19,686 nt of DNA. Source: a virus. Of this stretch, positions 1,495-19,686 are shown piece by piece (position 1 is the stretch's first letter; each line of letters starts with the position of its first letter). The translations under genes and the position numbers were made by a program. The stretch is from the IMG/VR virus record IMGVR_UViG_3300022486_000016, positions 1 through 19,686 of that record. The stretch is one strand, 5' to 3'. The notes under the pieces are model-generated. The model was not told where the DNA came from. It did not search any database and saw nothing but the letters and a program-made list of their open reading frames with translations.

Positions 1495-1520
1495 AAAAAG
1501 AGCCATGACGGCTCTTTTTT
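1495..1520. terminator. Bidirectional intrinsic terminator between the convergent left early and late transcription units
   Basis: AAAAAGAGCC-atgac-GGCTCTTTTT: a GC core stem flanked by an A-run and a T-run, so a U-tract follows the hairpin on either strand. It lies between the + strand ORF end (1493) and the - strand endolysin stop (1544). Confidence 0.75.
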
Positions 1521-1543
1521 GCTTTTGTTTAAGCTTTGTGTTA

Positions 1544-2866: not shown

Positions 2867-2870
2867 TCTT

Positions 2871-3257: not shown

Positions 3258-3278
3258 GTTTTCTCACCTCCTTTCTAG

Positions 3279-4358: not shown

Positions 4359-4374
4359 GCATGCTCATACCTCC

Positions 4375-7300: not shown

Positions 7301-7764
7301 GATCCTACGTTAAAACCTTGCGTGTTCGTGTGTCGTGCTCTGAAATTCTTGTCGTCGCTTGGCAAATATGGCAAATACTGAGCAATAGTTCCGCTGACTT
7401 GCGTATTTTTATTAAAGAGCATGGGTTGATAAGTGTTCCATATATCCAACTCGTAAATAATTTTAGTCGTATTCTCGTTAATGTAAGCGATGTCGTAAAC
7501 GAACGCGTAATACTCTTTACCAGCGTTTTTAAAAAACATGTAAGTCGCTGTCTCAAATTGTTCCTGACGTCCGCTTACGTAGATTTCACCCGTGCGTGAA
7601 ATAAACTGAAAATTATCAGATTCGTAAATCTTTTTAAGATGCGGTGAATCGGTATCAAAATATTTTTGCATCTCAGCGCGATTGTCAAAGTGAATGACGT
7701 TCGCGTAATCGCTACGAAATGGCGATTTTGAGTAAAGTTTAATTTTAGTTGTTTCTTTAACCAA
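4375..7764 (-). CDS. Tail knob protein (phi29 gp9-like N- and C-terminal parts) with an internal lysozyme-like + CHAP peptidoglycan hydrolase cassette, 1129 aa
   Basis: The N-terminus (SPFRSDYANV...YYAFVYDI...ELDIWNTYQ) resembles the phi29 gp9 N-terminus. Residues ~325-460 (LLGNAKQESS...GLGLWQWT...RWERAG) resemble the phage tail lysozyme family. Residues ~500-625 are CHAP-like (GNGQCYAL Cys, GAGHTGI His, EQNYG). Gly-rich linkers flank the cassette. TTG start at 7764, with AAAGGA 11 nt upstream. Confidence 0.8.
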   Translation of the reverse strand: MVKETTKIKLYSKSPFRSDYANVIHFDNRAEMQKYFDTDSPHLKKIYESDNFQFISRTGEIYVSGRQEQFETATYMFFKNAGKEYYAFVYDIAYINENTTKIIYELDIWNTYQPMLFNKNTQVSGTIAQYLPYLPSDDKNFRARHTNTQGFNVGSKATEEIYDVGANLVDWLVIVAKPEFKFKGEAGTPASDMSFSGTQKSLKYYFVPVEIAGKMTKQFELDGQTYPPKPIVTILLECFGITVGGKHISPTKDNTADAQHIATNNIVNMYYSRYLGIDYDYDGSVVKIKKADGDIFNVVGVGRQSSAAPSGGSGDLVTVGGPTGSEKEIAERIAKTIKANYPPATVNGIAALLGNAKQESSMDYTIDVAAGLGLWQWTSTRAQGLRNYAHSKGISEHTIEAQVGWLLNEPGESETAKAVLSGNDSAGNLSDVFVTRWERAGIPVADKRRAYAESFVPIVKAVINDASNNSNAGKNADNKTTSAPKPAEVTEKVIAKVKAMANKSVGNGQCYALSSYYCQCFREFGVDAPGLGAGVGNLYKQIGDTYNAYAIGSAYDWKSCGWGVKFNPSEEDFKNAAGCMINYKPNYGPTVTGGAGHTGICISYDGHSLHTVEQNYGNNGYTLDHVVTHVHADALSSICIPPDVLAGGKINPDVVGDASGGDGSGGANSAAYIVKIVEHPKAAPKFIEIDELKPKILKRLKAYIKDTLGERFVHMANQLLLISELIDVELYDYYGNTYAYQLELLNNLQTEDGKYYNKSAIMLLGSVGDQNYNFAGLVAYGHTHNIVDQNNKTFKIKAKADENIISKWDIMQYGIFDTTGKNLTILDDATATYIQGHAAQIKAQQASFNENASLQRQQADMNNRQTSFANDKNIYGANFAVDQSVFKRGKAGVMATVDVATNALDIFSPLKKDETYLGKFMSTASNTAKAGMNGYYNVQQSLMDVTNAKVNRSFAQDENELRSQSTALANLQAKTAIDQQIRAFNATMTDLQNQPDSIQQMGNDISFQTSNYQQGLFIRIRFPYPEQLKTVLTYMHLYGYIYQTESNDVLKYAYNRRAFNYIKLTSADVSGLEAPQSDLAMIKNILASGVRIWEAKYLDYTKPKPFDIYTPNPNRADDQAVLDSYRNFD

Positions 7765-7792
7765 GTTTTGAAAGTTCCTTTCTAGCTAACAT

Positions 7793-7827
7793 ATAAAAAT
7801 AGTGTTAGCTTTTTAACTAACACTATT
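7793..7827 (-). terminator. Candidate partial intrinsic terminator/attenuator inside the late operon
   Basis: An 11-bp perfect stem, AATAGTGTTAG (7798-7808) / CTAACACTATT (7817-7827), with an 8-nt loop. On the - strand RNA it is followed by UUUAUAU. The stem is AU-rich, so the call is marginal. Confidence 0.4.
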
Positions 7828-7869
7828 ATATCATACTTTGTACTATTGCGCTAGTACAAGTATCTTTTT

Positions 7870-8619
7870 TTAGTCGCCGATTTCGGTCTGTCCGACCCAC
7901 GTTCCGCCGTGGCGGATGCGGTGTTTTCCGCGTCCTTGAGCCTTTCTGTCAGCGTTGCTCATTGTGCTCACGTCGCTCCATGTTCCGCCTTTGCGGATTT
8001 TAAACCATCCGTTATGTTTTTGATGACTCTTGAAAGTGCCATTTTTGCGAGTCGCCCAAGGTCGAAACTCTGGCGGTGGAAAGTACGCGATAGCGTCAAA
8101 CCATAATTCGATTTTATTATCACCGCTTGGATCTGCGGCCAAGTCGTCAAAGCGTAGAAGTTTAATTCCTACGTGTTGCGTATGCTCGCGAGCAAATTCA
8201 CTTTTTTTAATAGTGAGGATAGGAACAGAACCGAACACCGTAGCGCCTCCGAGCTGTTGGTTATAGCTATAACCCGTACCTGACTGGTAGTGTAAGTCGA
8301 CCAGTGTTTGACCGTTCGCATTTACTAAGCTATCATGGACAGGGAAAGGAGTGCCACGGCGTAGGCTTGTGATAGTCAAGCCGTAACCGCTCACACCTTT
8401 TACTTTGATACGAATTTCGTCCGTCGTTTCTTCAATGTCATAGTCAAAACTTACTCGCGTGTCAATCGTTTCATTTTCTGGAGATCCGACCGTATAGGCG
8501 TTGTACATGTGAAAAATGGAAGTGTTGCCTTCGTAGCTCACGCCTCTATATGTACCCCCCTGAATGACAACAGGTTTAAGTTGAAAATCTACGCGTCCGC
8601 CGTTTTTAAGTTGTGCCAT
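7870..8619 (-). CDS. Virion structural protein, putative fibre/receptor-binding protein (249 aa)
   Basis: Sits in the structural block. GGAGGTG SD. The C-terminus has repeated basic motifs of the type K/R-I-R-K/H-G-G-T-W (FKIRKGGTW, HRIRHGGTW). The function is inferred from position only. Confidence 0.5.
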   Translation of the reverse strand: MAQLKNGGRVDFQLKPVVIQGGTYRGVSYEGNTSIFHMYNAYTVGSPENETIDTRVSFDYDIEETTDEIRIKVKGVSGYGLTITSLRRGTPFPVHDSLVNANGQTLVDLHYQSGTGYSYNQQLGGATVFGSVPILTIKKSEFAREHTQHVGIKLLRFDDLAADPSGDNKIELWFDAIAYFPPPEFRPWATRKNGTFKSHQKHNGWFKIRKGGTWSDVSTMSNADRKAQGRGKHRIRHGGTWVGQTEIGD

Positions 8620-8622
8620 ACA

Positions 8623-9327
8623 TTAAACACCTCCAGCCAAGTCGTCCTCTGTTGCTCCGTTATTTGTGCGGATAAAGTGCGCACCGTCTGTCGCTCCACC
8701 GAATACGTTAATATTACCTGTCGCAATATTGCGGTCTGGCTTAAGGTTACCATTTTCCCAAGCGCCTGAATTTTTGAGGTTGTCAATAATCTTATTGAGG
8801 TTGTTTTCAATCTCAGTAATACCGAGCTTATCTTTCAAATCTTTCAAAAATTTAGGGTCGTTGAGCAACTCTTTGAGATAGTCTTTAAACCATTTTTGCA
8901 TTTCAGGATCGTGCATAATTTCTTTGAGATAATCCTTGAAAAATTCACGCATGTCTGGATCTCGGAGAATATCTTTAAGATAATTTTTAAACCATTGCTT
9001 CAAGTCGCTATTAAGGACATCTTTGAGCAAGTCTGAGAAGATTTTGCGGAACTCTGTCGAGTGTGCAAAGCGTCGAATAAGTTCAGGAATAAGATATTCT
9101 AACAAATCAATTAGCGCATTTTTAAAGTCTTCAAACTCATTTTCCAACGCTGTAAAGTCGTCCAAGAGTTGCTTAAAGGCTCTTTGAAGCCACGCGATAA
9201 GCTCATAAATAGAGTTCGCGTTGTCAAAGCTCGTTGGGAGTTCTGGAATTAGTCCGAAGCGCTCAATCCAGTATTGACTATAACGACCGCGGTAGTTTTT
9301 GAAAAAGTCTTCGTTTTCGTTAAACAT
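8623..9327 (-). CDS. Putative fibre/appendage protein with four 17-aa helical repeats (234 aa from ATG 9327)
   Basis: The track start TTG 9333 is replaced by ATG 9327, which lies 7 nt after GAGGTG. The N-terminal NSIYELIAWLQRAF motif resembles N-termini of Gram-positive phage fibre/appendage proteins. Tandem repeats follow, then a Gly-rich C-terminus. Confidence 0.55.
   Translation of the reverse strand: MFNENEDFFKNYRGRYSQYWIERFGLIPELPTSFDNANSIYELIAWLQRAFKQLLDDFTALENEFEDFKNALIDLLEYLIPELIRRFAHSTEFRKIFSDLLKDVLNSDLKQWFKNYLKDILRDPDMREFFKDYLKEIMHDPEMQKWFKDYLKELLNDPKFLKDLKDKLGITEIENNLNKIIDNLKNSGAWENGNLKPDRNIATGNINVFGGATDGAHFIRTNNGATEDDLAGGV
8827..9030 (-). repeat. Four imperfect tandem 51-bp (17-aa) repeats inside the CDS
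   Basis: Protein units: LLKDVLNSDLKQWFKNY / LKDILRDPDMREFFKDY / LKEIMHDPEMQKWFKDY / LKELLNDPKFLKDLKDK. On the + strand, TTTGAGATAxTCxTTxAAA recurs about every 51 nt. Confidence 0.8.
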
Positions 9328-9344
9328 AATCAATCACCTCTTTT

Positions 9345-11111
9345 TTAGTAGATTGTTTTAAGAATAGGTGGACATTTTGTGCCAGGCTCAAGCAATTCGC
9401 TCGCTTTAATTGTTTCAACTTCCGCAGTGTCGACGTTGTACGTTTTAATATTAAAGTCGAGAAGCGCTTGAGCGTCCGATTTATTGCCGCTAAACGTAAC
9501 TGATGTACCTGACACGCTTACATGGACTGGAAGCCAATACCCACCCATGTCAATCAACAAACCGCCTGAGACAATTACACCAGCGTCAATGTCATCCTGT
9601 GTAAAGTTTGTACGTCCTTTAGCTTGTGAAAGTTGGAGAAGCGCTTTCGCAGGAGTGAGCGGTGGGAATTCAAGCCAGTCGCGAATTTGGATAAAATTGT
9701 TAGCGAAGTTTTTTTCGGCTGATGCGAAGCGGATGTCTGTCACAATGTTTGTAAGTACACGGTTTTCATCGTCATATTTAAGTGAGACGAACAATCCTGA
9801 TCCGCCGTTTAGTCCGCCGAGCTGGCTAGTTTTTAGACCGTGATCAAAATCGGTGAGTCGAGCGTCGTTGTAACCGGTTTCGTTAATGTTCTCTTGATCC
9901 CACGTTATCGTAACTGTTTCGCCTCCGACGACAAAATCTACAGATTCTAGACCTGTTTGTCGCGTGCGTGCTTGTAAAATTGCACGCTTAGATTCGTCGG
10001 TGACTTTGAGCGGTTCAGCGCTGTTTGTTGTATTAGCGTTCTTTAATTTCTCAGCGAGTGCATCAATCGCTTTTTTAAGCTCACCGTCAGCTGTTTTACT
10101 AGCTTCTCCGAGTTTTGTGACTGCGTCCGTCACGCTTGCAATATCTGAGATTTCTTTCGTTTTAGCGTCTTCGAGCTTTTTAGCTAAAGCGTCAGCTTTT
10201 GTTTTCGCTTCGTTTGCTTTGCCTTGTGCTTCAGCCGCGCGGTCTTGTGCGTCCTGAACAGCGACACCTAAAGCATCAAAGTCAGGAAGCGCTGGTTTTG
10301 CAACTTCAAGACGAATTTCTCCGACTTCTCGCGAGAAGTCGAGAGAGTCGATAGAGTTGTCATTTTGCTTGAGAGTAACAGTAAGAGTGACATTATCTGA
10401 CACCGACAAGCTGACAGCGTTCGAATTATCTAAGTCTGTATAGAGTTCGACGCGTTTGAGTCCTTCGACGCGTCCGTTATGTTTTTTCGCAATGTCGCGA
10501 CTTTCTTCGTTGACGTACAATTTCGCATCTTTTGGCAACTTCGACAAGATTTCTTTAATGTTGTCGATATCGGTTTTTAGCAACTTGTCAGCACCTTCAG
10601 ACGCTTCTTGCAATTTTGCAAGAGCGTCTTTCACGTCCGCAATTTGAGTAATAGCAGTAGTAGCCTTTTGGTCTGCAAGACCTGCTTTTTCTGCTGCTTT
10701 GTCAGCTTTATCTTTCGCTTCTTTTGCGTCATTCAAAGCTTTTGTCAAGTCCGCTTCAATTAATGTACCGTCAATTACCGCTTTTTCTTGCGTTTTGTTA
10801 ATGCTGAGATATTTGCCAGCAGTTTCGAGAGCTAGACCGCGATAGTCGTGCCCAAGGGCGACTGATTTTTTCGGATCATCCGTTCCTTCATCAGCTGTTG
10901 TAACGGTCGTAGTGACAAAAGGAGTCCCTGAGACTTCGTTAACTTTGTCTGGATCAGCTTTTACTTTTAATTTAAAGTCTCCATCACGCTCTGAAAAGTC
11001 AACGCTTGTAAGCGCATCTTTTCCGCTTACGCTAATGTCTTTAATTTTTTGATGTTGTTGGAATTGAATGGTCTTTGAAACTGGTAAAGGTCGTTTAGTT
11101 GATTTAGTCAT
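9345..11111 (-). CDS. Large fibre/appendage protein with a duplicated beta-segment + Ala/Lys/Asp coiled-coil module (588 aa)
   Basis: GAGGAAA SD. There are two similar modules: DFSERDGDFKLKVKA followed by KALNDAKEAKDKADKAAEKAG..., and DFSREVGEIRLEVAK followed by DAQDRAAEAQGKANEAKTKADALAKK.... A distinct C-terminal globular part follows. The receptor-binding role is inferred. Confidence 0.6.
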   Translation of the reverse strand: MTKSTKRPLPVSKTIQFQQHQKIKDISVSGKDALTSVDFSERDGDFKLKVKADPDKVNEVSGTPFVTTTVTTADEGTDDPKKSVALGHDYRGLALETAGKYLSINKTQEKAVIDGTLIEADLTKALNDAKEAKDKADKAAEKAGLADQKATTAITQIADVKDALAKLQEASEGADKLLKTDIDNIKEILSKLPKDAKLYVNEESRDIAKKHNGRVEGLKRVELYTDLDNSNAVSLSVSDNVTLTVTLKQNDNSIDSLDFSREVGEIRLEVAKPALPDFDALGVAVQDAQDRAAEAQGKANEAKTKADALAKKLEDAKTKEISDIASVTDAVTKLGEASKTADGELKKAIDALAEKLKNANTTNSAEPLKVTDESKRAILQARTRQTGLESVDFVVGGETVTITWDQENINETGYNDARLTDFDHGLKTSQLGGLNGGSGLFVSLKYDDENRVLTNIVTDIRFASAEKNFANNFIQIRDWLEFPPLTPAKALLQLSQAKGRTNFTQDDIDAGVIVSGGLLIDMGGYWLPVHVSVSGTSVTFSGNKSDAQALLDFNIKTYNVDTAEVETIKASELLEPGTKCPPILKTIY

Positions 11112-11409
11112 AATTTTTTTCCTCGTTTTCTATAAATGTAAAACTCATGGTTTTTGGATGCAATTCCGCTAGCTGTTTTAAATAAAGGACAGCTTGCAAA
11201 AGCATTTTTTTCGTTTGCTTGCTGTACGCTATTTCAGCGTAACTGTAACCGTCCGCCGTTTTTTTGTCGATGATCTTGTGAGTGAAAGTGTATGTGATAG
11301 CCTGAAAAGCCGTCGTCGCTCGGGCGCAATCTTCACGCCCCGTGGCGCTGTGCCCTTTTACTGTTAGGCGGAGGCTTGTTGCGGTCATTTCCGCATTTAT
11401 TGTAATCAT
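11104..11409 (-). CDS. Prp-like (ribosomal-processing cysteine protease family, former DUF464) small protease candidate, 101 aa
   Basis: MITI..., LRLTVKGHSATGREDCARATTA and C-terminal LLQAVLYLKQL line up by eye with S. aureus Prp (MITV..., DGHADHGEYGHDIVCAGASA, LILQTMLVSLQT). That includes the His/Cys dyad positions and the ~100-aa size. Confidence 0.5.
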   Translation of the reverse strand: MITINAEMTATSLRLTVKGHSATGREDCARATTAFQAITYTFTHKIIDKKTADGYSYAEIAYSKQTKKMLLQAVLYLKQLAELHPKTMSFTFIENEEKNYD

Positions 11410-12095
11410 AGTTTTTCGTGTCCTTCCCCTCCGACCAAAGAAATACGTTTCTCGCCGTCGTGGTTATTCGTCGCGGTGAGTTGGAACTTATCCCAATCTT
11501 TCAGGTAGTGCACCCATCCAGGCTTTTTGAGTCCTCGGTTGTTGTTGTCATACCATACAATACCGATTTCTTCCCAGCTTTCCGCATCGTTCCAAGGTTT
11601 CTCATAAGTTGCTTTAAATTTAAAATTATTAGACGTTAAGACTCCGTTATCCCAATGCGTAAGCTCGTTGATAATAGGTATACGACTAAAATACTCATTA
11701 TCGTCAATGACTCGCCCGAAGCCTTTAAGTTTAGACTTAGATAAAAGCTTATCTTTGCTATAATAAACGCCTAAAACTTTAAAGCGGATGAAACATAAGC
11801 AGTTAAGCTCGTCGCCTGATGTCGTTACGGCTGTAATCGGTTTGTTTACAACTTTCGAGCGTGTTGATGTAATGCCCCAACGTTCAGCGCTTGATGCGTC
11901 TGCGTAGTAGTAAAGCACCGCTCGCGCTTTGACGTAGAGATTTTTTAAGCGTTTACCATAGCGTGGATTAGTTACTTTAAAATAGTACAGCTCGTCAGGC
12001 TCAGGTGTGAAATCCTGAGGTACTTTAATAAGTAGCTGAGCTAGATATTTATCGTAGCTGACTAAGTTTTCGTTAGCTATTGTTAATTCTCGCAT
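11406..12095 (-). CDS. Structural-module protein, unknown function (229 aa)
   Basis: AAAGGA SD. ATGA-type overlap with the downstream gene. Located between the lower collar and the protease. I recognise no motif. Confidence 0.6.
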   Translation of the reverse strand: MRELTIANENLVSYDKYLAQLLIKVPQDFTPEPDELYYFKVTNPRYGKRLKNLYVKARAVLYYYADASSAERWGITSTRSKVVNKPITAVTTSGDELNCLCFIRFKVLGVYYSKDKLLSKSKLKGFGRVIDDNEYFSRIPIINELTHWDNGVLTSNNFKFKATYEKPWNDAESWEEIGIVWYDNNNRGLKKPGWVHYLKDWDKFQLTATNNHDGEKRISLVGGEGHEKL

Positions 12096-12112
12096 AGTTT
12101 GTCCTTTCTAGG

Positions 12113-12772
12113 TCACCACACTTGTAAAAAGAGCGGTTCCAAAATGTTGAAGATTTCAAAAGTGAGGTCTTCCATTTGCGCGAGTTGGTTGTAACGCTGA
12201 GCGAGTTGACCGCCTGCCCATCCGTGCGTATAGCTGTGGTGGTCTTCCTTGCCTTTTGCGTTACCCTCACCGAGCGCATTTGCGTAATCTATTGCGCCGT
12301 ACTTTTGGTCGTGGTCGTTGTCATAAGTTATGCTTAAGTGTTCTTGTGGTGTCGTGTTTGAAATCGATAAAGTGTGACTGTCATTTTTAGAGCTTCCGTC
12401 GTTATACATGCTGGTATCTTGATTCATTTGATCAAGTGACATGTTTTTAAGCGTGTCACGGACTTTAAACAAATTGAGACAGTCCGTGTTTAATTCTTGC
12501 TCTAAAAATACCTGGAAGCGTGCGAACGTCTCGAAACCGATTTCGCGATTATAGAAACGCTGACAAAAGAGTTTTTTAAAGTCGTCATCGACGTACTTAT
12601 TTAAGTGCATGTCTTTAAATAGCTCATTAAATGTCTGGTCAATAATGACATTATAGTGTAAAAAGTCGCCGTTTTCGTCAACTGCCAAACCGTCAAGATT
12701 TCCTGTAATCGGATTACGATACCGAGATTTTAAAAATTGCTCAATTGTTACTGTTGTGTTGTTTTGTGTCAT
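12113..12772 (-). CDS. Lower collar protein (phi29 gp11-like)
   Basis: FYNREIGFETFARF resembles the conserved lower-collar motif as I remember it. It sits directly after the connector gene, as in phi29. GGAGG SD. Confidence 0.65.
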   Translation of the reverse strand: MTQNNTTVTIEQFLKSRYRNPITGNLDGLAVDENGDFLHYNVIIDQTFNELFKDMHLNKYVDDDFKKLFCQRFYNREIGFETFARFQVFLEQELNTDCLNLFKVRDTLKNMSLDQMNQDTSMYNDGSSKNDSHTLSISNTTPQEHLSITYDNDHDQKYGAIDYANALGEGNAKGKEDHHSYTHGWAGGQLAQRYNQLAQMEDLTFEIFNILEPLFLQVW

Positions 12773-13806
12773 GGCTGTAAACCTCCGTCCGCGTTGTCGT
12801 CGAGATTTTCGGTGTTTAAGTCTTTCTCAACATCCGCAAAGTTAAAGCGTTGCACCCATTCAGCAGGCTCTACGTCAATATTTAAGCCGTAAGCTTCATT
12901 AATACGTTTCACCGCGTTTCGACGAGATTTCCAACCTACCTCAATATTAGCTGAGATAATTCCTGCGTTAGAAATTGCTTCAGCAGTAACTAAGCGCTCA
13001 GCTTTGTCCACTGGATTATTATTAATACCTATAAATGTTAAGAGCTGATTGATCACTCGGTTTTTTTCGTCGTGTAACTTATCCAAGAGATACGGAGCCT
13101 CAGTCCTAAAGACTTTAATTCTGTCGTCTAACTGTTGGAAGTCTGCTGTCCCTGCGGCGTTCTTTTGCGTGTTAGCGTAAACGACAGGCTCAAAGCTCTG
13201 GATCTTGTTAAAAATATTTTTTAAACTTAATACAGATTTTTCATCAGCTAAGACAAAGAACGGAGTGACTTGAGCGTTGCGGTTTAATTGAATAGTCATT
13301 TCAATATCTGCGAGCTTTTCGCAATAGAGGTGGATATAGTCCAGATATGGCTCAAATAAGTTATTATTCGGAATAACGATACAAGGTTTGTCCGTCCGTG
13401 TCTCATCATGCATTTTTTGGAGTAAGTCAAAATCCCTTTTACTGTACGCGATTTGCATTTTAGGGAATCGCATCTGCTGAGCCGCGTTAACAGGTAAGTA
13501 CGTCGTCGGATAGTCGTAAATGTTTAACTCTTGCCCGCGTGTGCCTCCTTGGACGACATATCCGAGCTGTTCGTCTTCGAAAAATGCAACGTGTCCATTT
13601 TCCAAAAGCTTACGCTCTATAAAGAGCTCATCAAGGTCATTCGGTAAATTGTACCAAGAGAAGTAGTTTACGACAATGTCATAAAAGTAATTAAAGTAAA
13701 AGTTATACCATGCTGTACGATTACGGTCGACGGTTGTTTTACTGTGTTCAATGCGTCCTAAAGTTTTTGTATATTCCTTGAGACTGTGATAATTTACAGT
13801 ATTCAA
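12769..13806 (-). CDS. Head-tail connector / portal (upper collar, phi29 gp10-like)
   Basis: By-eye matches to phi29 gp10: RNRTAWYNFYFNYF versus RNRWFIHYLNYL; LNRNAQVTPFFV versus VNQNAQKTPVLI; FRTEAPYLLDKLHDEKN versus FKTDAPYVVDKLNAQKN; INEAYGLNIDV versus INELYGLNVKV. TTG start, 7 nt after GAGGA. Confidence 0.85.
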   Translation of the reverse strand: MNTVNYHSLKEYTKTLGRIEHSKTTVDRNRTAWYNFYFNYFYDIVVNYFSWYNLPNDLDELFIERKLLENGHVAFFEDEQLGYVVQGGTRGQELNIYDYPTTYLPVNAAQQMRFPKMQIAYSKRDFDLLQKMHDETRTDKPCIVIPNNNLFEPYLDYIHLYCEKLADIEMTIQLNRNAQVTPFFVLADEKSVLSLKNIFNKIQSFEPVVYANTQKNAAGTADFQQLDDRIKVFRTEAPYLLDKLHDEKNRVINQLLTFIGINNNPVDKAERLVTAEAISNAGIISANIEVGWKSRRNAVKRINEAYGLNIDVEPAEWVQRFNFADVEKDLNTENLDDNADGGLQP

Positions 13807-13830
13807 ATACTTTTCCTCGCTTTCTTTGTT

Positions 13831-13864
13831 TTAATAAAAGCCCAGACCCATTGTGGGCAGGGCT
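13831..13864 (-). terminator. Intrinsic terminator (probably partial) just downstream of the major capsid gene
   Basis: The - strand RNA reads AGCCCUGCCCA-caa-UGGGUCUGGGCU, a GC-rich stem with one small bulge, followed by UUUAUU. It starts 16 nt after the capsid stop codon. Confidence 0.6.
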
Positions 13865-13879
13865 AGTAGAGGAATACTA

Positions 13880-14977
13880 TTAGTCTTCCACGTAGAACAT
13901 GTGGATGTTTTCGAAAAGTGAAAGGCTAGTAAGGTAATGGTGATGGTAGAAGTAGTTATAAGACATAGTCTTTGGATTGCGGATGCTTTCCATGTGTACT
14001 AATTTGTCCTTTAAGATAATCGAGTTCTTAGATACTAAGAAAGCAACTGGACGGCGTCCGTTATTTTGTCCAGCTCCTGTGAACTTGTCAAAGAAGTCGA
14101 CAACAATTTGACGAGCTTGGACTGACGCTTTATCCATGTTGAAAGCGTTAGCAAGCATGAGGTCGATATCAGTTGAGTATTCAGCGTCGATAATCAAATA
14201 TTGATCTTCGAGTGGCGTCGCATTAGGTACACCTACTGGATTATTTGAATGAGCTTTATCACGCGAAGGGATTGTAAACTGTTTAGATTTCGCGATGATG
14301 TCCTTCACCATTTCCTCAATATAGTTATTATGAGTCGTGTCGACTTTAGTACCTGCTACCGTGATTTGGTGAGCTGTACCAGCGTTATCTGTGTAAGTAA
14401 CCTCAGCGAGTGAGTCGTTAAGCACTTGTTTAACTGCTGCATATTCATCGAGCGTGTCTGAGCTAATCAAAGATGTGAACATTTTGTCAATAAATTCATC
14501 AAATGCCATATCTGAGGTAAAGGCTTTTTGAACCCAGGCACGTTCGAAAGTACGATCGTAGCGGTATTCGTTGTTCAACTTGTGATAAAAGACTTCGATA
14601 TCTGTATCAGCGAAAGCGAAAGGATGTCCGTTGTCTTTTGCGTTAAAGTTGTTACGTTCCGCAGGTGCGACGTAAATTTCTTCCAACGTATCACCGAACT
14701 CGAAAATTTCAGATTTAAAAATAGCGAGTGGGTTTTCATAAGTCAAAGCCTTCACGACAACTGATCCAATACGGTTAATCAACTGTTCAAAAAATTCATT
14801 TTCATGAACTTGAAATTGTTGTACAGGGATATTACTGTGGTTGATAGCGCCTTTAAGTACAGGAATGTCAGCCCGATAAGCATTTGAAGCTTTTTCACGG
14901 ATGGCGTTTAAGAGGTCGATGTTGCTTACTGTTTGTCCCGTTTCATGAGACATAAAGCGTGTAATTTTATTGCTCAT
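13880..14977 (-). CDS. Major capsid protein (phi29 gp8-like)
   Basis: By-eye matches to the phi29 gp8 N-terminal half: DLLNAIRE versus DIVNAIRN; RIGSVVVKA versus RIGLVVIRQ; NPLAIFK versus NPLKKFK; TLEEIY versus TIEEIY. AAGGAG SD. Confidence 0.85.
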   Translation of the reverse strand: MSNKITRFMSHETGQTVSNIDLLNAIREKASNAYRADIPVLKGAINHSNIPVQQFQVHENEFFEQLINRIGSVVVKALTYENPLAIFKSEIFEFGDTLEEIYVAPAERNNFNAKDNGHPFAFADTDIEVFYHKLNNEYRYDRTFERAWVQKAFTSDMAFDEFIDKMFTSLISSDTLDEYAAVKQVLNDSLAEVTYTDNAGTAHQITVAGTKVDTTHNNYIEEMVKDIIAKSKQFTIPSRDKAHSNNPVGVPNATPLEDQYLIIDAEYSTDIDLMLANAFNMDKASVQARQIVVDFFDKFTGAGQNNGRRPVAFLVSKNSIILKDKLVHMESIRNPKTMSYNYFYHHHYLTSLSLFENIHMFYVED

Positions 14978-15210
14978 TATTTTTCTCCTTCTTCTACAGG
15001 AATTTGATTATTTTCGTTAACTTCAGTCGTTTCGAGTTCGTCAGCGCGTTCAACGCGTTCAGGATAATTTTGTTCACGGTTTGCGATGTTATCCGCAGGC
15101 GTTTCGAGTGGTTGTTCGACGTCGGTAGGTGCGTTAGTTTCTACGGCACGGTCAGCGTAAATAGCTTTAAGCTCGTCGCGTCCGTACCAGTCAATTTTTG
15201 GAAGATTCAT
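14977..15210 (-). CDS. Small acidic head-morphogenesis protein (77 aa), function unknown
   Basis: AAAGGA SD. Its stop overlaps the capsid start (ATAATG). Very acidic and of low complexity. Positioned between the scaffold candidate and the capsid gene. Confidence 0.6.
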   Translation of the reverse strand: MNLPKIDWYGRDELKAIYADRAVETNAPTDVEQPLETPADNIANREQNYPERVERADELETTEVNENNQIPVEEGEK

Positions 15211-15233
15211 TTTTTTGGTGTCCTTTCTGTTAA

Positions 15234-15536
15234 TTAAAACAAGTCGTTAATTTGTGCAATTTTTGAGACTGCTTCTTTAGCTTCCTCAGCTGCCTCGTTT
15301 TGTTTTCCGATTTGACGGTAAAGCGTGTTATTAGATGCCATAAGACCTTGGTTTTTCTTGTTAAGGTTTGCGACATCTTCGTTCAACGTTGCCACGATTT
15401 CGTCAATTGTACTTACAAAATCTTTAAGCGTAATAAGATCCGCGAGAATTGATTCGATTTCGTCGTCGTTCCCAACACGTTCAGGGAGAGAGTCGAGAAG
15501 CTCAAGAGCGTCTTTAGTTTCAAAAGCTGTATCCAT
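15234..15536 (-). CDS. Scaffolding protein candidate (100 aa, acidic, helical)
   Basis: The track ORF starts at 15584, inside the promoter. I trimmed it to ATG 15536 (MDTAFETKD...), which follows AAAGGAGG. It is the first late gene, and its size and composition resemble phi29 gp7 (98 aa). Confidence 0.7.
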   Translation of the reverse strand: MDTAFETKDALELLDSLPERVGNDDEIESILADLITLKDFVSTIDEIVATLNEDVANLNKKNQGLMASNNTLYRQIGKQNEAAEEAKEAVSKIAQINDLF

Positions 15537-15569
15537 TGTGGAGAAGCCTCCTTTACATTTATTTGTACT

Positions 15570-15601
15570 ATTATAATAACACAAGACAACAAATATGTCA
15601 A
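15570..15601 (-). promoter_or_regulatory. Late-operon promoter (P-late)
   Basis: On the - strand: TTGACA (15601-15596), a 17-nt spacer ending TGt, then TATTAT (15578-15573). This overlaps TATAAT (15575-15570). The SD and scaffold start follow. About 45 nt are paralogous to the promoter at 15966..15997. Confidence 0.75.
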
Positions 15602-15606
15602 GTGGC

Positions 15607-15635
15607 TTGACACTTTTAATGGTTTGTGTTAAGAT
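15607..15635 (+). promoter_or_regulatory. Plus-strand promoter divergent from P-late
   Basis: TTGACA (15607-15612), 17-nt spacer with TGt, TAAGAT (15630-15635). Its -35 and the P-late -35 together form the palindrome TGTCAAG-tgg-CTTGACA (15596-15612). Confidence 0.65.
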
Positions 15636-15641
15636 AATAAT

Positions 15642-15788
15642 ACAAGAAGCACCGATTGTGATTGACGTATAGCGTCTGGACGATTACGCATTGAGTTGCG
15701 CCTGACGCTTTCGCATCTTAATCACATGCTCTGTCAGTCGCTCTCGATTCGTTTCTTCAAACAGTTTCCTTACGGAAGCTGTTTTTTT
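15642..15788 (+). ncRNA. Candidate small RNA A (~147 nt)
   Basis: Bounded by the + promoter and a + terminator. Nested helices: AAGAAGC (15644-50) / GUUUCUU (15751-57); UGUGAUU (15657-63) / AAUCACA (15720-26); AGCGUC (15671-76) / GACGCU (15704-09); CGCA (15687-90) / UGCG (15697-15700). Two G-U pairs exist only in the + sense. No SD-led ORF is present. Confidence 0.55.
15759..15788 (+). terminator. Intrinsic terminator of candidate RNA A
   Basis: ACAGTTTCC-ttac-GGAAGCTGT, 9 bp including one U-G wobble that would be an A-C mismatch on the other strand, followed by T7 (15782-15788). Confidence 0.7.
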
Positions 15789-15794
15789 ATATAT

Positions 15795-15824
15795 AAAAAA
15801 TCCCCTTAGACATCTCGTCTAAGG
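15795..15824 (-). terminator. Intrinsic terminator of candidate RNA B
   Basis: On the - strand: CCUUAGAC-gagau-GUCUAAGG (15824-15804), then GGAUUUUUUAUAU. It converges 3'-to-3' with the RNA A terminator across the spacer T7-ATATAT-A6. Confidence 0.6.
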
Positions 15825-15960
15825 AGTAGTAGTGGTAGAGCTAAATTTGATAGATAAATAAGAAAGAAAGGAGATTTTATGATTTAATAAGAAAGGTGGT
15901 ACTTCATATAGTAAGACTCGTGTAATTTTGTGAGATAGACGCTCTACCTTGCCTATCTCT
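15795..15960 (-). ncRNA. Candidate small RNA B (~165 nt), pRNA-like size
   Basis: Bounded by the late-type promoter at 15966..15997 and the terminator at 15795..15824. It has a 5' hairpin GAGAUAG/CUAUCUC (15959-53 / 15938-32). A 5'-proximal GGUAGAGC (15948-41) pairs with a 3'-proximal GCUCUACC (15841-34). The AU-rich core holds two anti-SD-like tracts (CCACCUUUCUU, UCUCCUUUCUUUCU). There is no credible ORF. Confidence 0.5.
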
Positions 15961-15965
15961 GTACT

Positions 15966-15997
15966 ATTATAATAACACACTAAGGCAAATACGTCAA
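15966..15997 (-). promoter_or_regulatory. Late-type promoter paralog (drives candidate RNA B)
   Basis: On the - strand: TTGACG (15997-15992), 17 nt ending TGt, TATTAT/TATAAT (15974-15966). The string CTTGAC(G/A)TATTTG...TGTGTTATTATAATAGTACA is shared with P-late. Confidence 0.7.
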
Positions 15998-16009
15998 GCG
16001 TCAGGATAC

Positions 16010-16037
16010 AAAAAAAGAGCGTTTTTTATAAACGCCC
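16010..16037 (-). terminator. Intrinsic terminator T2 (second copy of a duplicated terminator module)
   Basis: On the - strand: GGGCGUU-uauaaaa-AACGCUC followed by U7. The G-U pair exists only in the - sense (A-C mismatch in the + sense). It shares the 17-nt identity TACAAAAAAAGAGCGTT with 16089-16105. Confidence 0.65.
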
Positions 16038-16091
16038 TGACGATTCCTGAGTAGTGCCAGTAACTCTAACGCGTACCACTAAAAACAGTAC

Positions 16092-16120
16092 AAAAAAAGA
16101 GCGTTGCACTACTAACGCCC
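16092..16120 (-). terminator. Intrinsic terminator T1 (ends the early operon and candidate RNA C)
   Basis: On the - strand: GGGCGUU-aguagugc-AACGCUC followed by U7. It is the first terminator after the polymerase stop codon. Confidence 0.7.
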
Positions 16121-16163
16121 CGATTTTAGCGATACTCTGCGAGGCAATACCACTTAACCTCAC
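16092..16163 (-). ncRNA. Candidate small RNA C (~70 nt; ~155 nt if it reads through to T2 at 16010)
   Basis: It lies between a perfect-consensus promoter (16170..16198) and T1. There is no ORF (ATG ATG TGA only). Confidence 0.45.
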
Positions 16164-16169
16164 ATCATT

Positions 16170-16198
16170 ATTATAGCAAAACTTTAAAAAATTGTCAA
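16170..16198 (-). promoter_or_regulatory. Consensus promoter overlapping the polymerase stop codon
   Basis: On the - strand: TTGACA (16198-16193, containing the polymerase TGA stop), 17-nt spacer ending TGc, TATAAT (16175-16170). Confidence 0.7.
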
Positions 16199-17811
16199 TA
16201 GTCAAAATCATCAATGGCTTTAATTTCAAAAGTTGTCGTGACAATGGACATACCGCCACGGCGACCAATCATTTTTTTGAGACCGTCGAACTTTTGACCA
16301 ACTTTGAAATTTTCAAAGGTTACTTGTTTCTTTACAGCGTCCGTCATGCCTGCTACCTTGACGTGGAGTGAGCCGTCAGTTTTTTGGATAGCGTAGCATT
16401 TTTGACGGATATATTTAAAGCGAGTTCCTGTAACTTCGAGATCAAATGCACCGAGTTTTTTTGCGTCGACCTCAAATTTTACATTTTTAGTCGTTAAGTG
16501 TACCGCGTCGGTATCACTGTAAACAAAGTTATCACGATGCATTAGAGCGATTGATACAATATAAGTACGAGCAATAGACGCGATTGCGGCAGTCATTGGC
16601 GCATAAATCGCTTTTACAAATGTATCGCGTCCGTTTTCATAGACCACACGTCCTGTCGTTTCATCGATGCGAGGATCTTTGCTTGTTAAACGAGTTTTAG
16701 CGCCAAACTTACCGTAAAGACTCACAAGCATAGCTTTCGCGTGTTGACGGCTAAAAGGAGTCGATGCCTCTTGTTTTTCAGCGTAGTATTTATTTACATA
16801 CATATCAAACAAACCGCGAGCACCTGCAAATGTTACCTGTTTAAAAAATACAAAATCCACAACGTCGTAACTTTTCAAGAAAAGCTGATATTCAGTCCAG
16901 GACATACAAAACGTAGAGCGTCCTTTAGTTTCATAAATCAGATGTCCTTCTTGACACATGCTATTCTCTGTTTTCGCAAACGGGAAAAATCCGTCCTTTA
17001 ATTCAAATTCACATTCAAAGCTAACAAACGAAACTTGAGACTCTAAAGGAGCTTTAGGCTTTGTTGTATTGATTTCGACAGGCTTGCCGTAAGGGAGAAC
17101 AGCGGATTTTTGGATAAAAGCGTACATACTATTAATATCAAAAACGTTGATTTCACCTTTGATGTCTTTGTTTACATATTTAGGAACGATGTAATTCCAA
17201 CCCGATTTATCAACCTCACGACAAAGTTTATCGACATCGTCTGGCAACTGTGGAAAGTAGCTGTCAAAGGCGTAGCCTTGCTGTTTCATAATTTGTTTAA
17301 ACTCATACAAAGCCTGAGAAGCATTAGTAAAACGAACGTATTTACCAGCTACGAAATATTCTTCAACCGCTTTACAAAAGACATCGATATCGCTACCCGA
17401 AAGCTTAAAGGTCTCACGCATGGCGTCAACACCGCCATCAAAAACTTTTTTAAAGTCTTTAATCTCAAAGCGGTAATCATTCACATAGAAACGCAACTCG
17501 TAAAACTCTAAGCCAATCTGTGTATCATACTTAATACCGTTCTCGATAAAATATGCGACAAATGTATTAGTAACTTCAATTAAGCTAGGAACAAAAAGCG
17601 TATGTACTGTGTTTGTATCATTAAGCCCTTGACCTACCCAAGCTTTTAAAAATGCACCAATGCTTTCGAACGTTGTAGCAGAAGTAGTAAGACAACGTTT
17701 AAACGTTATGCTATTAAGTGTAACGCTTTGAACGTCTTCACTGACCATGTCCGCCACTGCCGCATAGTACGTGCGGTCAGTGCGGTTCTTTTTATTATCT
17801 GTGGTATTCAT
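16195..17811 (-). CDS. Protein-primed family-B DNA polymerase (phi29 gp2-like), 538 aa
   Basis: Motif A VFDINSMYAF, motif B AKAMLVSLYGKFGAK, motif C FVYSDTDAVHL, KxY motif RQKCYAIQ. The C-terminal AGMTDAVKKQVTFENFKVG is almost identical to phi29 AGMTDKIKKEVTFENFKVG. See the findings for the missing exonuclease residues. Confidence 0.95.
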   Translation of the reverse strand: MNTTDNKKNRTDRTYYAAVADMVSEDVQSVTLNSITFKRCLTTSATTFESIGAFLKAWVGQGLNDTNTVHTLFVPSLIEVTNTFVAYFIENGIKYDTQIGLEFYELRFYVNDYRFEIKDFKKVFDGGVDAMRETFKLSGSDIDVFCKAVEEYFVAGKYVRFTNASQALYEFKQIMKQQGYAFDSYFPQLPDDVDKLCREVDKSGWNYIVPKYVNKDIKGEINVFDINSMYAFIQKSAVLPYGKPVEINTTKPKAPLESQVSFVSFECEFELKDGFFPFAKTENSMCQEGHLIYETKGRSTFCMSWTEYQLFLKSYDVVDFVFFKQVTFAGARGLFDMYVNKYYAEKQEASTPFSRQHAKAMLVSLYGKFGAKTRLTSKDPRIDETTGRVVYENGRDTFVKAIYAPMTAAIASIARTYIVSIALMHRDNFVYSDTDAVHLTTKNVKFEVDAKKLGAFDLEVTGTRFKYIRQKCYAIQKTDGSLHVKVAGMTDAVKKQVTFENFKVGQKFDGLKKMIGRRGGMSIVTTTFEIKAIDDFDY

Positions 17812-17836
17812 AATAAAGTATCGCTTTCTTTATTTG

Positions 17837-18577
17837 TTATTTTTTACGTTTTGCTGAACGACTGCGAGCGTTCTTTGATGCTCTACTGATATCATCAAAA
17901 GATCCAGAAAGCTCACTCGCTTTAGTGCTGTCGCTCATTTCTATTTTTTTACCGTCGGAATCATAAAACCATTCACGGAGATTTTTAATGTTCCATTCCA
18001 TTCGCGTTGATGGATCTCGGATACTGTCTACAAACTTTGTAGGACTGAGTAAACGAACGCTACGAATCGCGGCACGTGCTTCTTTTAATTGTCCAGGTGT
18101 AGCGCCCGCCTTTTTCATAACTTTATAGCGAGATTCAAGAGCGCTGATATACTGGCTCTTTTTGTCTTTTGCGTAGCTTGTTTTCATCTTACGGACTTGC
18201 GTTTCATTCATGCGACTAAACTTGCTTTTTTGTTCACTTGCCCAATTGCGCCCCATTGCCACGCCGTCCACTCGTCCACCGCCTTCGATAGTTGTTTCCA
18301 TACGTCGAAAGAGTTGGAGTTTTTTCGTCGTCGACTCACGGTAAATACCGCCCGTCTCTGGATTGACCGAGAGATCTTTGGACGAGTAAGCCTTAGTCTT
18401 TAGTTTACTTGCTACGCGTCGTACTGTCTTTGTATCCATTTCTTTACTAGAGAGAGTATTAGTACCAAGGACAGCTTTAATCTCTTCGTCTTTTGCGCCC
18501 ATGCTTGAAAGTTGATTGACACGGCGTGTGATATACCCACGGTCACTGCTGAGGCTTGTTTTTTTCTTAGCTGTCAT
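17837..18577 (-). CDS. Terminal protein candidate (246 aa, basic)
   Basis: Lies immediately upstream of the polymerase, as gene 3 does in phi29. Its size is similar to known terminal proteins (phi29 266 aa). Lys/Arg/Ser-rich. AAAGGA SD. Called from synteny; I recognise no sequence motif. Confidence 0.6.
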   Translation of the reverse strand: MTAKKKTSLSSDRGYITRRVNQLSSMGAKDEEIKAVLGTNTLSSKEMDTKTVRRVASKLKTKAYSSKDLSVNPETGGIYRESTTKKLQLFRRMETTIEGGGRVDGVAMGRNWASEQKSKFSRMNETQVRKMKTSYAKDKKSQYISALESRYKVMKKAGATPGQLKEARAAIRSVRLLSPTKFVDSIRDPSTRMEWNIKNLREWFYDSDGKKIEMSDSTKASELSGSFDDISRASKNARSRSAKRKK

Positions 18578-18866
18578 AATCTAGTCCTTTCATAAACAAA
18601 TCTAATGAGATATACGATGTCAATTTCTTGTACGCGATATCCGTAACTTTAAATCCGTCGTATCCGTTTTCGTCGCAATACTCAGCATAACGACGATTAA
18701 TTTCAGATTGTGTACGCTTGAGCGGTAGTGTCATATTATATTCAGTCGTGGTGATGTCGCCATCTGTGCTTACGTTGTAAACGTAGCCTTTCACAAATGT
18801 AACCGCTCGACGTACACTTACTGTACGCTCTGTATCGTCCATATATTTATAATAACCTTTACGCAT
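18567..18866 (-). CDS. Early protein, unknown function (99 aa); SSB/DNA-binding role is possible from position only
   Basis: First gene after the internal early promoter. AAGGA SD. Overlaps the start of the terminal-protein candidate by 11 nt. No motifs recognised. Confidence 0.6.
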   Translation of the reverse strand: MRKGYYKYMDDTERTVSVRRAVTFVKGYVYNVSTDGDITTTEYNMTLPLKRTQSEINRRYAEYCDENGYDGFKVTDIAYKKLTSYISLDLFMKGLDYDS

Positions 18867-18901
18867 AATGTTTTAATCCTTTTTTGTTTTTCTTTACTAT
18901 A

Positions 18902-18930
18902 AGTATACACCAAATAGGGTGATTTGTCAA
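18902..18930 (-). promoter_or_regulatory. Internal early promoter
   Basis: On the - strand: TTGACA (18930-18925), 17 nt, TATACT (18907-18902). The downstream TATACTTATAGTAAAGAA is identical to that of the proximal ITR promoter. Confidence 0.7.
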
Positions 18931-18969
18931 GTGTAATACCCTACTTTTTTTAAAAATGTTTATATGTTT

Positions 18970-19368
18970 TTATTTTAAATGATTGAAGAAGTACTCAGCG
19001 TCCATGTTGTAATCTTTTGGCTCAATCGCTGATTTTTTACGTTTCGTCTTTGCATACGCGTCAACTATATCCGTATAAGCTACGTCTTTATCTTGAGATA
19101 GTAGTAGCTCAAGGCAAGCATCCACGCGCTTAATCTTCAAATCCTTTGGCCCTGCCTTACGAAACCACGACTCTACTTTTTTAAGTTGCTGTGGTGCTCG
19201 GTACGGATCCATTTTCATATTCCAACAATATGATTTAATCAGTAAGCCCGCTGATTTAGGTAAGGCGCTGTCAGGCATATAATAATCTAAAAACATATTT
19301 TTCTGATTCATCAGGTCACGCACGTAACCCTGATAGGCTTTCAATAATTCTAAGCTTAGTGTTTCCAT
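18970..19368 (-). CDS. Early protein, unknown function (132 aa, basic/helical)
   Basis: The track ORF starts at 19419, inside the ITR and promoter. I trimmed it to ATG 19368 (METLSLELL...), 10 nt after AAAGGAG (19379-19385). That SD straddles the ITR boundary. Confidence 0.65.
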   Translation of the reverse strand: METLSLELLKAYQGYVRDLMNQKNMFLDYYMPDSALPKSAGLLIKSYCWNMKMDPYRAPQQLKKVESWFRKAGPKDLKIKRVDACLELLLSQDKDVAYTDIVDAYAKTKRKKSAIEPKDYNMDAEYFFNHLK

Positions 19369-19402
19369 CTGGAGATTTTCTCCTTTCATATTCTTTACTA
19401 TA

Positions 19403-19431
19403 AGTATAGCACACCTCAATCATTTTGTCAA
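19403..19431 (-). promoter_or_regulatory. Early promoter in ITR-R (proximal), mirror of 256..284
   Basis: Exact ITR copy: TTGACA (19431-19426), 17 nt, TATACT (19408-19403) on the - strand. Confidence 0.75.
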
Positions 19432-19488
19432 ACGTTTTATCTTAGTCATTTCAAATAATTAAAGTAGCTATCCCTTATTTCTAATATA

Positions 19489-19517
19489 AGTATAACACCG
19501 TTTAGCTATATTGTCAA
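19489..19517 (-). promoter_or_regulatory. Early promoter in ITR-R (distal), mirror of 170..198
   Basis: Exact ITR copy: TTGACA (19517-19512), 17 nt, TATACT (19494-19489) on the - strand. Confidence 0.75.
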
Positions 19518-19686
19518 GCGTAAGACCATCGTTTATTTATGCGCCATCATATGCGCGACCATGTAAGCGCCTAAGCATAGACATCAAAATTTTTAATGAG
19601 TCGATTTTAAGACACGGTATAATTTTAAAAAATTGATATACGATTTCAGGACTATCGAGGGGAACCGATTTCCGCTTCTACAGCCC

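Follow-up and report, generated by a model that had tools for sequence, protein, structure and literature searches.

A putative small RNA gene with two tandem anti-Shine-Dalgarno modules beside the packaging RNA gene of a Cp-1-like podophage

Introduction

The streptococcal csRNAs consist of a 5' stem-loop, an unpaired region complementary to the Shine-Dalgarno (SD) sequence and the AUG start codon, and a terminator, and have been proposed to block translation initiation (PMC3091779). They comprise the CiaR-dependent ccnA-E and their relatives, with lengths of 51-202 nt (PMC3091779, PMC4507080). Their marks are the CiaR repeat TTTAAG-N5-TTTAAG, which replaces the -35 box, and the nonamer [A/C]UCCUAAA[A/C] after the first stem-loop (PMC3091779). 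A small RNA of a different kind, the packaging RNA (pRNA), has been called unique to the phi29-like group of phages (PMC11476376, PMC6266182). The pRNA of phage Cp-1 was reported by Martin et al. 1996 (as cited in PMC6266182), and is missed by a covariance model derived from the pRNAs of Bacillus phages (PMC6266182). Here we analyze a candidate RNA, termed RNA B, encoded at positions 15,796 to 15,962 (minus strand) of a viral DNA of 19,686 nt (IMG/VR record IMGVR_UViG_3300022486_000016, positions 1 to 19,686; hereafter the window). A first-pass annotation of this DNA had likened RNA B to the phi29 pRNA, with translational regulation as an alternative role.

Phi29-like phages are the textbook minimal tailed phages, and in the sources used here the pRNA is their only non-coding RNA. 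The podophage represented by the window is virulent and has one of the smallest tailed-phage genomes. Comparison with related loci indicates that RNA B is a discrete, clade-restricted and undescribed non-coding RNA gene on the minus strand. The role of packaging RNA is predicted to be filled by a convergent neighbouring gene, RNA A.

Results

RNA B has its own predicted promoter and terminator

The predicted transcription unit is delimited by the following features:

15960-16009, minus strand: 50-nt promoter module, paralogous to the late-operon promoter region (15564-15613) at 78% identity
15969-15997, minus strand: RNA B promoter, with a -35 box TTGACG (15992-15997), a 17-nt spacer and an extended -10 box, TGtTATTAT, ending at 15969
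15796-15962, minus strand: predicted transcript of ~167 nt, starting at ~15962 and with its 3' end at ~15796 in a U run
15796-15826, minus strand: intrinsic terminator, with a stem of 11 pairs (15802-15826) and a U run (15796-15801)

The promoter (CGCTTGACGTATTTGCCTTAGTGTGTTATTATAAT) scored 10/12 with a TG motif in a promoter scan, and the transcription start site (TSS) was placed 7 nt past the -10 box. The 20-nt -10 module, TGTGTTATTATAATAGTACA, is identical to that of the late promoter (15564-15583) at 20/20 positions, with 0 matches expected by chance. The earlier description of this promoter as a near copy of the late promoter is borne out by the -10 module and by the 78% identity over 50 nt. 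The terminator is the best-scoring intrinsic terminator in the window and lies back to back with the pRNA terminator. The predicted length and this top-ranked 3' hairpin agree with the ~165-nt RNA ending in a hairpin that had been anticipated.

The pRNA promoter (15606-15645, opposite strand) belongs to the same class, with a 17/20 match to the -10 module in inverted orientation; the early promoters have a different -10 box, TATACT. The promoter class is common to RNA B, the late operon and the pRNA, and the module is not specific to the late genes. Co-regulation of RNA B with the structural genes, as suggested in the first-pass annotation, is plausible, but the same resemblance fits the pRNA promoter equally well. 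The existence of a three-member promoter class suggests a common regulator. The late and pRNA promoters (15563-15645) are themselves the arms of an inverted repeat of 40 nt, which are 78% complementary and separated by 3 nt; the palindrome TGTCAAGTGGCTTGACA contains the two -35 boxes in back-to-back orientation.

RNA B is conserved within one clade

Relatives were collected by a head-protein search of viral contigs, which yielded 80 loci, and from metagenome contigs and polymerase-encoding contigs. Using nhmmer and pattern scans, homologs of RNA B were detected only in the window's own clade, as 13 distinct variants with 89-95% identity. The -35 and -10 boxes were invariant in 10-13 relatives, with a spacer that varied in sequence at constant length. 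Conservation was highest in a core of ~60 nt, where 6 of 60 columns varied compared to 43 of 122 elsewhere (Fisher p = 3e-4). An invariant segment contained the 3' arm of a predicted long-range helix (AGCUCUACCA; 0 of 10 columns varied) between flanks that varied at 8 of 9 and 6 of 10 columns.

Compensatory changes were found in the terminator (5 of 8 pairs). The 5' hairpin was paired in 100% of the 13 variants, with one AU-to-GC exchange and G·U variants of three pairs. On the plus strand the G·U pairs of the terminal hairpins would become A·C mismatches, so the folded molecule is the minus-strand transcript. The first-pass annotation had looked to covariation for support of an 8-bp helix closing the RNA. 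The 5' hairpin and the terminator do keep their pairing in the relatives, but all 8 pairs of the closing helix were invariant in the 13 variants, leaving nothing to score. With both sides invariant, covariation neither supports nor refutes this helix with the present data. Overall, the conservation among the relatives argues that RNA B is functional.

Indels of 1-3 nt in the relatives break the reading frames, so RNA B holds no conserved open reading frame (ORF). Two coding candidates were rejected: a 7-residue peptide, AUGAAGUACCACCUUUCUUAUUAA, lacks an SD sequence and has lost its AUG in one relative (L004), and a 53-residue ORF with a GTG start begins before the TSS and is interrupted by indels in the relatives. 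Searches of Rfam, at gathering score and at E <= 10 on 15400-16400, returned no meaningful match for RNA B. A match to SprD (E = 0.39; 18 bits versus a gathering score of 100) covered the upstream terminator and promoter and was regarded as noise, and the matches to ncr1175 and other families were far below their gathering scores.

The core contains two antisense images of translation-initiation regions

Two anti-SD-like tracts had been noticed in the core. They lie at or near where the first-pass annotation had placed them, CCACCUUUCUU at 15889-15899 and UCUCCUUUCUUUCU at 15861-15874 (minus strand), and are both conserved and predicted to be unpaired (probability 0.78 for tract 1 and 0.93 for tract 2). 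Each is part of a larger module directed against a translation-initiation region (TIR):

15889-15908, minus strand: anti-TIR module 1, with UAU (CAU in most relatives), 8 nt and the anti-SD tract CCACCUUUCUU; invariant from GAAGUACCACCUUUCU
15861-15881, minus strand: anti-TIR module 2, with CAU, AAAA and the anti-SD tract UCUCCUUUCUUUCU; invariant in the 13 variants

The sequences are CAUGAAGUACCACCUUUCU for module 1, where the window has UAU, and CAUAAAAUCUCCUUUCU for module 2. Note that the UAU of module 1 could still pair with AUG through G·U. With CAU or UAU positioned 5' of each anti-SD tract, each module resembles the antisense image of an SD-spacer-AUG region. Both tracts are located inside a 29-nt tandem duplication (77% identity), and they therefore represent one event copied once rather than two independent ones.

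The motif CCTTTCT occurs on the minus (mRNA-sense) strand in only two copies in 19.7 kb, both in RNA B. Its five plus-strand copies are all antisense to AGAAAGG on the minus strand, and at least three of these five AGAAAGG copies lie just upstream of gene starts, as SD sequences. On the sense strand of ~70 other Cp-1-like loci, CTCCTTTCT was nearly absent from the ~12 kb of each that were scanned.

RNA B may adopt alternative folds

The predicted secondary structure involves three elements in addition to the terminator:

15932-15959, minus strand: 5' stem-loop, with the 7-bp stem GAGAUAG/CUAUCUC (15953-15959/15932-15938) and an invariant 14-nt loop, GCAAGGUAGAGCGU
15941-15948, minus strand: 5' arm of the long-range helix, GGUAGAGC, inside the loop of the 5' hairpin
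15834-15841, minus strand: 3' arm of the long-range helix, GCUCUACC

The two arms form the 8-bp closing helix, which encloses 99 nt and is present in the minimum free energy (MFE) fold. The complementarity described in the first-pass annotation is real, but it is also common in randomized sequences: an 8-bp Watson-Crick helix appeared in 44 of 300 dinucleotide shuffles, so the closing helix alone is not beyond chance. As a whole, RNA B folded no better than shuffles (z = -1.14), and in the MFE and centroid folds the 8-bp helix surrounds an essentially open interior of ~99 nt.

The isolated 5' hairpin has a predicted energy of -10.4 kcal/mol. In forced folds of the whole RNA, the closing helix reached -29.5 kcal/mol and the 5' hairpin -28.1 kcal/mol. 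These structures may be either near-isoenergetic alternatives or the two stems of a putative H-type pseudoknot with connectors of 4 nt and 2 nt. The location of the 5' arm in the loop of the 7-bp hairpin, and with it the choice between a pseudoknot and alternative folds, is as the earlier annotation had it.

The invariant 5' loop (AGAGCGUCU) is perfectly complementary over 9 nt to codons 8-11 of the scaffold protein mRNA (AGACGCUCU; 15505-15513, minus strand), and the pairing survives by G·U in relatives with GCUUUA. The rough chance probability of this match is ~0.03 and we do not count it as evidence.

The packaging RNA is predicted to be RNA A

Next to RNA B, in convergent orientation, lies a gene with the expected features of a pRNA:

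15607-15795, plus strand: pRNA gene (RNA A), with its promoter at 15607-15635, a transcript of ~15640-15795 and a terminator at 15759-15784

The promoter of RNA A is divergent from the late promoter and overlaps it. RNA A, an RNA of ~147 nt, folds far better than shuffles (z = -4.8). Its 5'/3' helix leads into a three-way junction with two hairpins, the first of which has an apical stem-loop and a bulge of 7 nt, and the terminator follows. The counterpart in Cp-1 (L001, 4650-4836, minus strand) occupies the equivalent position on the strand antisense to the late genes and has the same fold (z = -4.83); in the inspected Cp-1 and Cp-7 records it is not annotated as an RNA. All Cp-1-like clades have a gene of this type, with the same fold, upstream of the late promoter; it is represented by 61 distinct sequences of 143-149 nt. 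In an alignment of 23 sequences, 87% of cells were paired, compared to 70% in shuffles, and 36 of the 57 pairs had changed on both sides. A pentamer in the bulge was complementary to the loop of the second hairpin in 100% of the 23 sequences, with two covarying pairs and the versions GGUUA/UAACC, GGUAA/UUACC and GAUUA/UAAUC. We take this bulge-loop pairing to be the arrangement of the right-hand and left-hand loops of the phi29 pRNA.

RNA B shows neither a three-way junction nor a complementary pair of hairpin loops in its predicted folds. Local alignment of RNA B with the pRNA gave a score of 17, versus 16.2 ± 2.4 in shuffles, and paralogy was rejected. An 11-mer that the two share, GUA(U/G)AGCGUCU, was attributed to chance, and the pRNAs of relatives have not kept it. 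The Rfam model RF00044 matched neither RNA A nor RNA B, but this test is weak, since the model misses the Cp-1-type pRNA too, in agreement with PMC6266182.

With pRNA architecture, covariation and synteny in all clades, RNA A appears to fill the packaging-RNA role already, and RNA B is by this evidence not the pRNA. The likeness to phi29 pRNA drawn in the first-pass annotation is not supported for RNA B, which is clade-restricted, with an open interior and a z value indistinguishable from that of shuffled sequences (-1.14). For this phage and all Cp-1-like phages examined, the annotation is to be corrected: the packaging-RNA role is assigned to the antisense RNA just upstream of the late promoter, a gene now backed by covariation, and RNA B should not carry the label pRNA.

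RNA B as a candidate repressor of translation

The reading that we favour, although tentatively, is that RNA B is a base-pairing small RNA (sRNA) that represses translation and is made together with the late transcripts. Its expression, pairing mechanism, targets and timing are what we infer from the sequence. RNA B would be transcribed by host sigma-A RNA polymerase from the duplicated promoter copy and ended by the strong intrinsic terminator. The working part would be the largely unpaired, U/C-rich core of ~60 nt with its two tandem modules of ~29 nt, each arranged as 5'-CAU/UAU, 4-8 nt, anti-SD-3'. The core might pair with the SD and start regions of phage early or lysis mRNAs or of host mRNAs, occluding the binding of the 30S subunit and lowering translation while the late genes and the pRNA are made. 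Stability would come from the 5' stem-loop and the terminator, and pairing of the invariant loop sequence GGUAGAGC with the 3' sequence GCUCUACC, as a pseudoknot or in an alternative fold, may present or gate the core.

Potential targets were ranked by short-module scans against TIRs. These replaced unrestricted duplex scans (against the genome, the pRNA and the adjacent units RNA C and RNA D, see below), which produced giant loops and inflated energies and had no significance. Module 2 paired best with the TIRs of the holin gene (-17.3 kcal/mol), the ORF at 11409 (-16.0 kcal/mol), the ORF at 19368 (-14.2 kcal/mol) and the connector gene (-14.1 kcal/mol). The energies of pairing between the tracts and phage SD sequences were close to those of the 16S 3' tail.

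Several results weigh against a translation-repressing function. Sites for 14-mers complementary to the tracts were absent from the phage at fewer than 3 mismatches, except for RNA B itself. In the phage TIRs no complementarity beyond the generic SD was found and no target stood out; with generic SD complementarity only, the phage's own late mRNAs would be hit too. Among 185,579 species genomes, no perfectly matching host TIR for module 1 was found. The 18-nt complement of module 1 had 15 matches in this set, approximately the estimated chance number and none in Streptococcus, and the double-tract pattern had 0 matches, with no homolog. Furthermore, the whole core of ~60 nt is conserved and not only two seeds of ~10 nt, which fits a protein-binding platform as well. 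Finally, the homologs are confined to one narrow clade, so that the evolutionary evidence is shallow. The translational role that the first-pass annotation had listed as an alternative becomes our favoured one, with conserved and accessible tracts in its support, but on the side of the phage targets it meets only generic SD sequences.

More specifically, and with somewhat greater reserve, we propose that a double anti-TIR sRNA mimicking the 3' end of 16S rRNA exists besides the pRNA and uses the late promoter class. It might silence host mRNAs or phage early and lysis mRNAs, for example in timing the holin.

A 20-nt exact complement of module 2, ATAAGAAAGAAAGGAGATTT, was found in three contigs (L103, 12301-12320; L104, 3893-3912; L105, 7328-7347). 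It is SD-like and of low complexity, and these matches were set aside as probably due to chance. The three are unrelated viral contigs of 41-64 kb, in which the site forms the 5' untranslated region and SD of the first early-operon gene; the 111-residue product encoded behind it had no match in phage records. In the window, a hairpin, GGAGAAAAUCUCC (19371-19392, minus strand), can form in the TIR of the gene that comes first at the right end (start 19368) and sequester the SD of that gene. The anti-SD half of this hairpin, AAAUCUCC, is the same sequence as in module 2 of RNA B.

Alternative readings of RNA B

The near-invariance of the entire core, including the AU-rich stretches between the tracts, would suit an RNA whose tandem pyrimidine- and AU-rich repeats bind or titrate a protein of the host or the phage (for instance an RNase, an RNA chaperone, ribosomal protein S1 or a toxin from an RNA-antitoxin defence system). 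The 29-nt tandem duplication recalls the repeat-type antitoxin RNAs ToxI and antiQ, and a protein partner would fit with the failure to find a specific mRNA target. We nevertheless regard such a decoy as unlikely: there are just two repeats, 77% identical, no toxin or partner gene is adjacent, no ORF lies between the DNA polymerase and scaffold genes, and no Rfam family matches. Moreover, a decoy role would leave unexplained why CAU and anti-SD occur in both modules at a TIR-like spacing. Less probable than a decoy is that RNA B has no function in trans and is the by-product of a duplicated promoter and a terminator, serving as an insulator or buffer of convergent transcription between the early operon and the pRNA and late promoters, or being neutral. 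The promoter and the first ~17 nt do duplicate the late promoter region, the surroundings are dense with terminators, the overall fold is no better than that of shuffles, and RNA B is absent from all other Cp-1-like clades. A mere by-product, however, would not account for a core significantly more conserved than the flanks and the terminator stem, for the 3' arm as an invariant island between variable flanks, or for a 5' hairpin kept through compensatory change, and a genome of 19.7 kb has little room for 200 bp of neutral DNA.

The conserved segment could also act as DNA or on the plus strand, where an SD, 4-5 nt, ATG and an immediate stop codon occur twice (AAAGGAGAttttATGATTTAA, and GAAAGGTGGTacttcATGTAG in most relatives). 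Such units might trap ribosomes on pRNA transcripts that read through, which is conceivable with the pRNA terminator just upstream, or the repeats might be protein-binding sites in DNA. We consider this improbable, and marginally more so than a neutral by-product, as the plus strand has no conserved promoter (a weak match at 15884-15912 is lost in relatives), a strong terminator precedes the region and none follows it, the two flanking hairpins have G·U pairs that are possible only on the minus strand, and the second start in the window itself is ATA. Least of all do we expect RNA B to be a second packaging RNA, a pRNA paralog binding the prohead or the connector with its 8-bp helix resembling the A-helix of the pRNA. 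This very improbable reading could draw on the promoter class in common with the pRNA and on the 5'/3' helix followed by a terminal hairpin, which resembles the outline of domains I and II. It conflicts with the presence, next door and in every related clade, of a pRNA-type RNA with full architecture and covariation, and with the weak fold of RNA B (z = -1.14), which lacks a three-way junction and paired loops, is not paralogous in sequence to the pRNA and has no Rfam match. Furthermore, other clades with a packaging motor of this kind, among them those of Cp-1, Cp-7 and the SOCP type, do not have RNA B.

The locus and its adjacent units

In the window we recognize the complete linear genome of a Cp-1/phi29-like podophage, which includes the following genes:

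16195-17811, minus strand: family-B DNA polymerase
15234-15536, minus strand: scaffold protein
13880-14977, minus strand: major head protein
12769-13806, minus strand: upper collar connector
3279-4358, minus strand: encapsidation ATPase
2871-3257, minus strand: holin
Minus strand: endolysin with CHAP and GH25 domains

Inverted terminal repeats of at least ~290 bp (1-~296 and ~19391-19686) hold mirrored strong promoters at 170-198 and 256-284 (plus strand) and at 19517-19489 and 19431-19403 (minus strand), which indicates that the window is the whole linear genome. No tRNA or tmRNA was found. The head protein is 67-70% identical to those of the Streptococcus phages Cp-1, Cp-7 and SOCP, and the likely host genus, judged from the kinship to Cp-1, is Streptococcus. 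A comparison of the intergenic-region DNA with 50,697 phage records showed no similarity, and the window DNA corresponds to no deposited phage.

RNA B lies in a gene-free gap of 610 bp between the polymerase and scaffold genes, where independent gene callers likewise place no gene in the related contigs. Every other Cp-1-like clade has orf6 and orf7 between the polymerase and the late promoter; both are missing in the window clade, and RNA B together with two further small units, RNA C and RNA D, fills their space. The polymerase of this clade has no close relatives, with three clusters at ~90% identity and then none above ~36%, and the head and connector genes are 67-73% identical to those of the Cp-1 group. 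Relative to the other members of the Cp-1 group, the replication module (16195-18577, minus strand; loci L004-L013) is foreign, which suggests that modules were exchanged exactly where RNAs B, C and D are located.

RNA C (16098-16198, minus strand) is a unit of ~65-70 nt, bounded by a terminator (16121-16098) and driven by a promoter of perfect consensus (TTGACA, 17 nt, TGcTATAAT; 12/12) at the extreme end of the polymerase gene. A compensatory change converts its 5' hairpin, GUGAGG/CCUCGC, to GUAAGG/CCUUAC in relatives; the loop, UUAAGUGGUAUU, is invariant, and we regard RNA C as a second candidate sRNA. The loop can pair with the region of the invariant 3' arm of RNA B, UACCACU, at -13.2 kcal/mol, a value equalled by 21 of 500 shuffles. 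A 9-bp pairing between the terminator loop of RNA C, GUAGUAGUG, and CACUACUAC of RNA B was rejected: RNA B varies at this site (CACCAC, CAUUAC) while RNA C is invariant, so the pairing is not maintained. RNA D (16008-16094, minus strand) is a promoter-less and more variable segment of ~82 nt whose 3' end is a second terminator (16038-16016). A 17-nt sequence, TACAAAAAAAGAGCGTT, is repeated exactly at 16007-16023 and 16089-16105, and RNA D appears to be a tandem copy of the RNA C unit that has diverged. With both units in place, the early operon is followed by a double terminator.

Discussion

If the RNA B gene is real, a genome of 19.7 kb would contain a second conserved RNA gene, extending riboregulation to these phages too. 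If RNA B blocks ribosome binding sites, it would constitute a compact and testable RNA control of translation in the lytic cycle in streptococci, and possibly a natural design for a dual silencer of such sites. We know of no earlier base-pairing regulatory sRNA from this group of phages, to which RNA B would add a phage-borne functional analogue of the streptococcal csRNAs.

Among known RNAs, the phi29-type pRNA (RF00044) resembles RNA B in its location between replication and morphogenesis genes, in its size (~165 nt for RNA B), and in the 5'/3' complementarity followed by a terminal hairpin; the promoter of RNA B is moreover of the class of this phage's own pRNA. In contrast to the pRNA, RNA B lacks the three-way junction, hairpins of the C, E and D type and the loop pair, folds weakly and is not kept across relatives. 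The type III antitoxin RNAs ToxI and antiQ consist of two to several near-identical units of ~34-36 nt, and phages carry mimics of them. They have in common with RNA B tandem AU-rich repeats under a constitutive promoter and a subsequent terminator, whereas RNA B has only two 29-nt repeats of 77% identity, no toxin gene nearby and no family match.

RNA B also has the generic trait of trans-acting sRNAs, being a short non-coding unit with its own promoter and Rho-independent terminator. The C/U-rich anti-SD sRNAs of Gram-positive bacteria include RNAIII, SprD and RsaE of S. aureus and RoxS/FsrA of B. subtilis. Like these, RNA B presents pyrimidine-rich single-stranded motifs that could pair with G-rich SD sequences, without Hfq-type seeds. 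However, their motifs are usually exposed in hairpin loops and their genes are located on chromosomes or pathogenicity islands, and they have no sequence relation to RNA B.

The csRNAs are alike in size, in the likely host genus and in layout, with an anti-SD and CAU in an unpaired region (in RNA B as two modules) between end hairpins that in RNA B are supported by covariation. RNA B differs from them in its promoter, which has a TTGACG -35 box and no TTTAAG, and in the sequence following the 5' hairpin, which reads ACAAAAUUACACGAG; UCCUAAA occurs nowhere in RNA B. It further differs in having two tandem modules instead of one, in being a gene of a virulent podophage under a phage promoter class, and in showing no detectable homology. 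By these comparisons the resemblance of RNA B to the csRNAs is functional: the RNA is not a member of the family, but combines the same elements, an anti-SD and an anti-start sequence in an open region between two hairpins, in duplicate.

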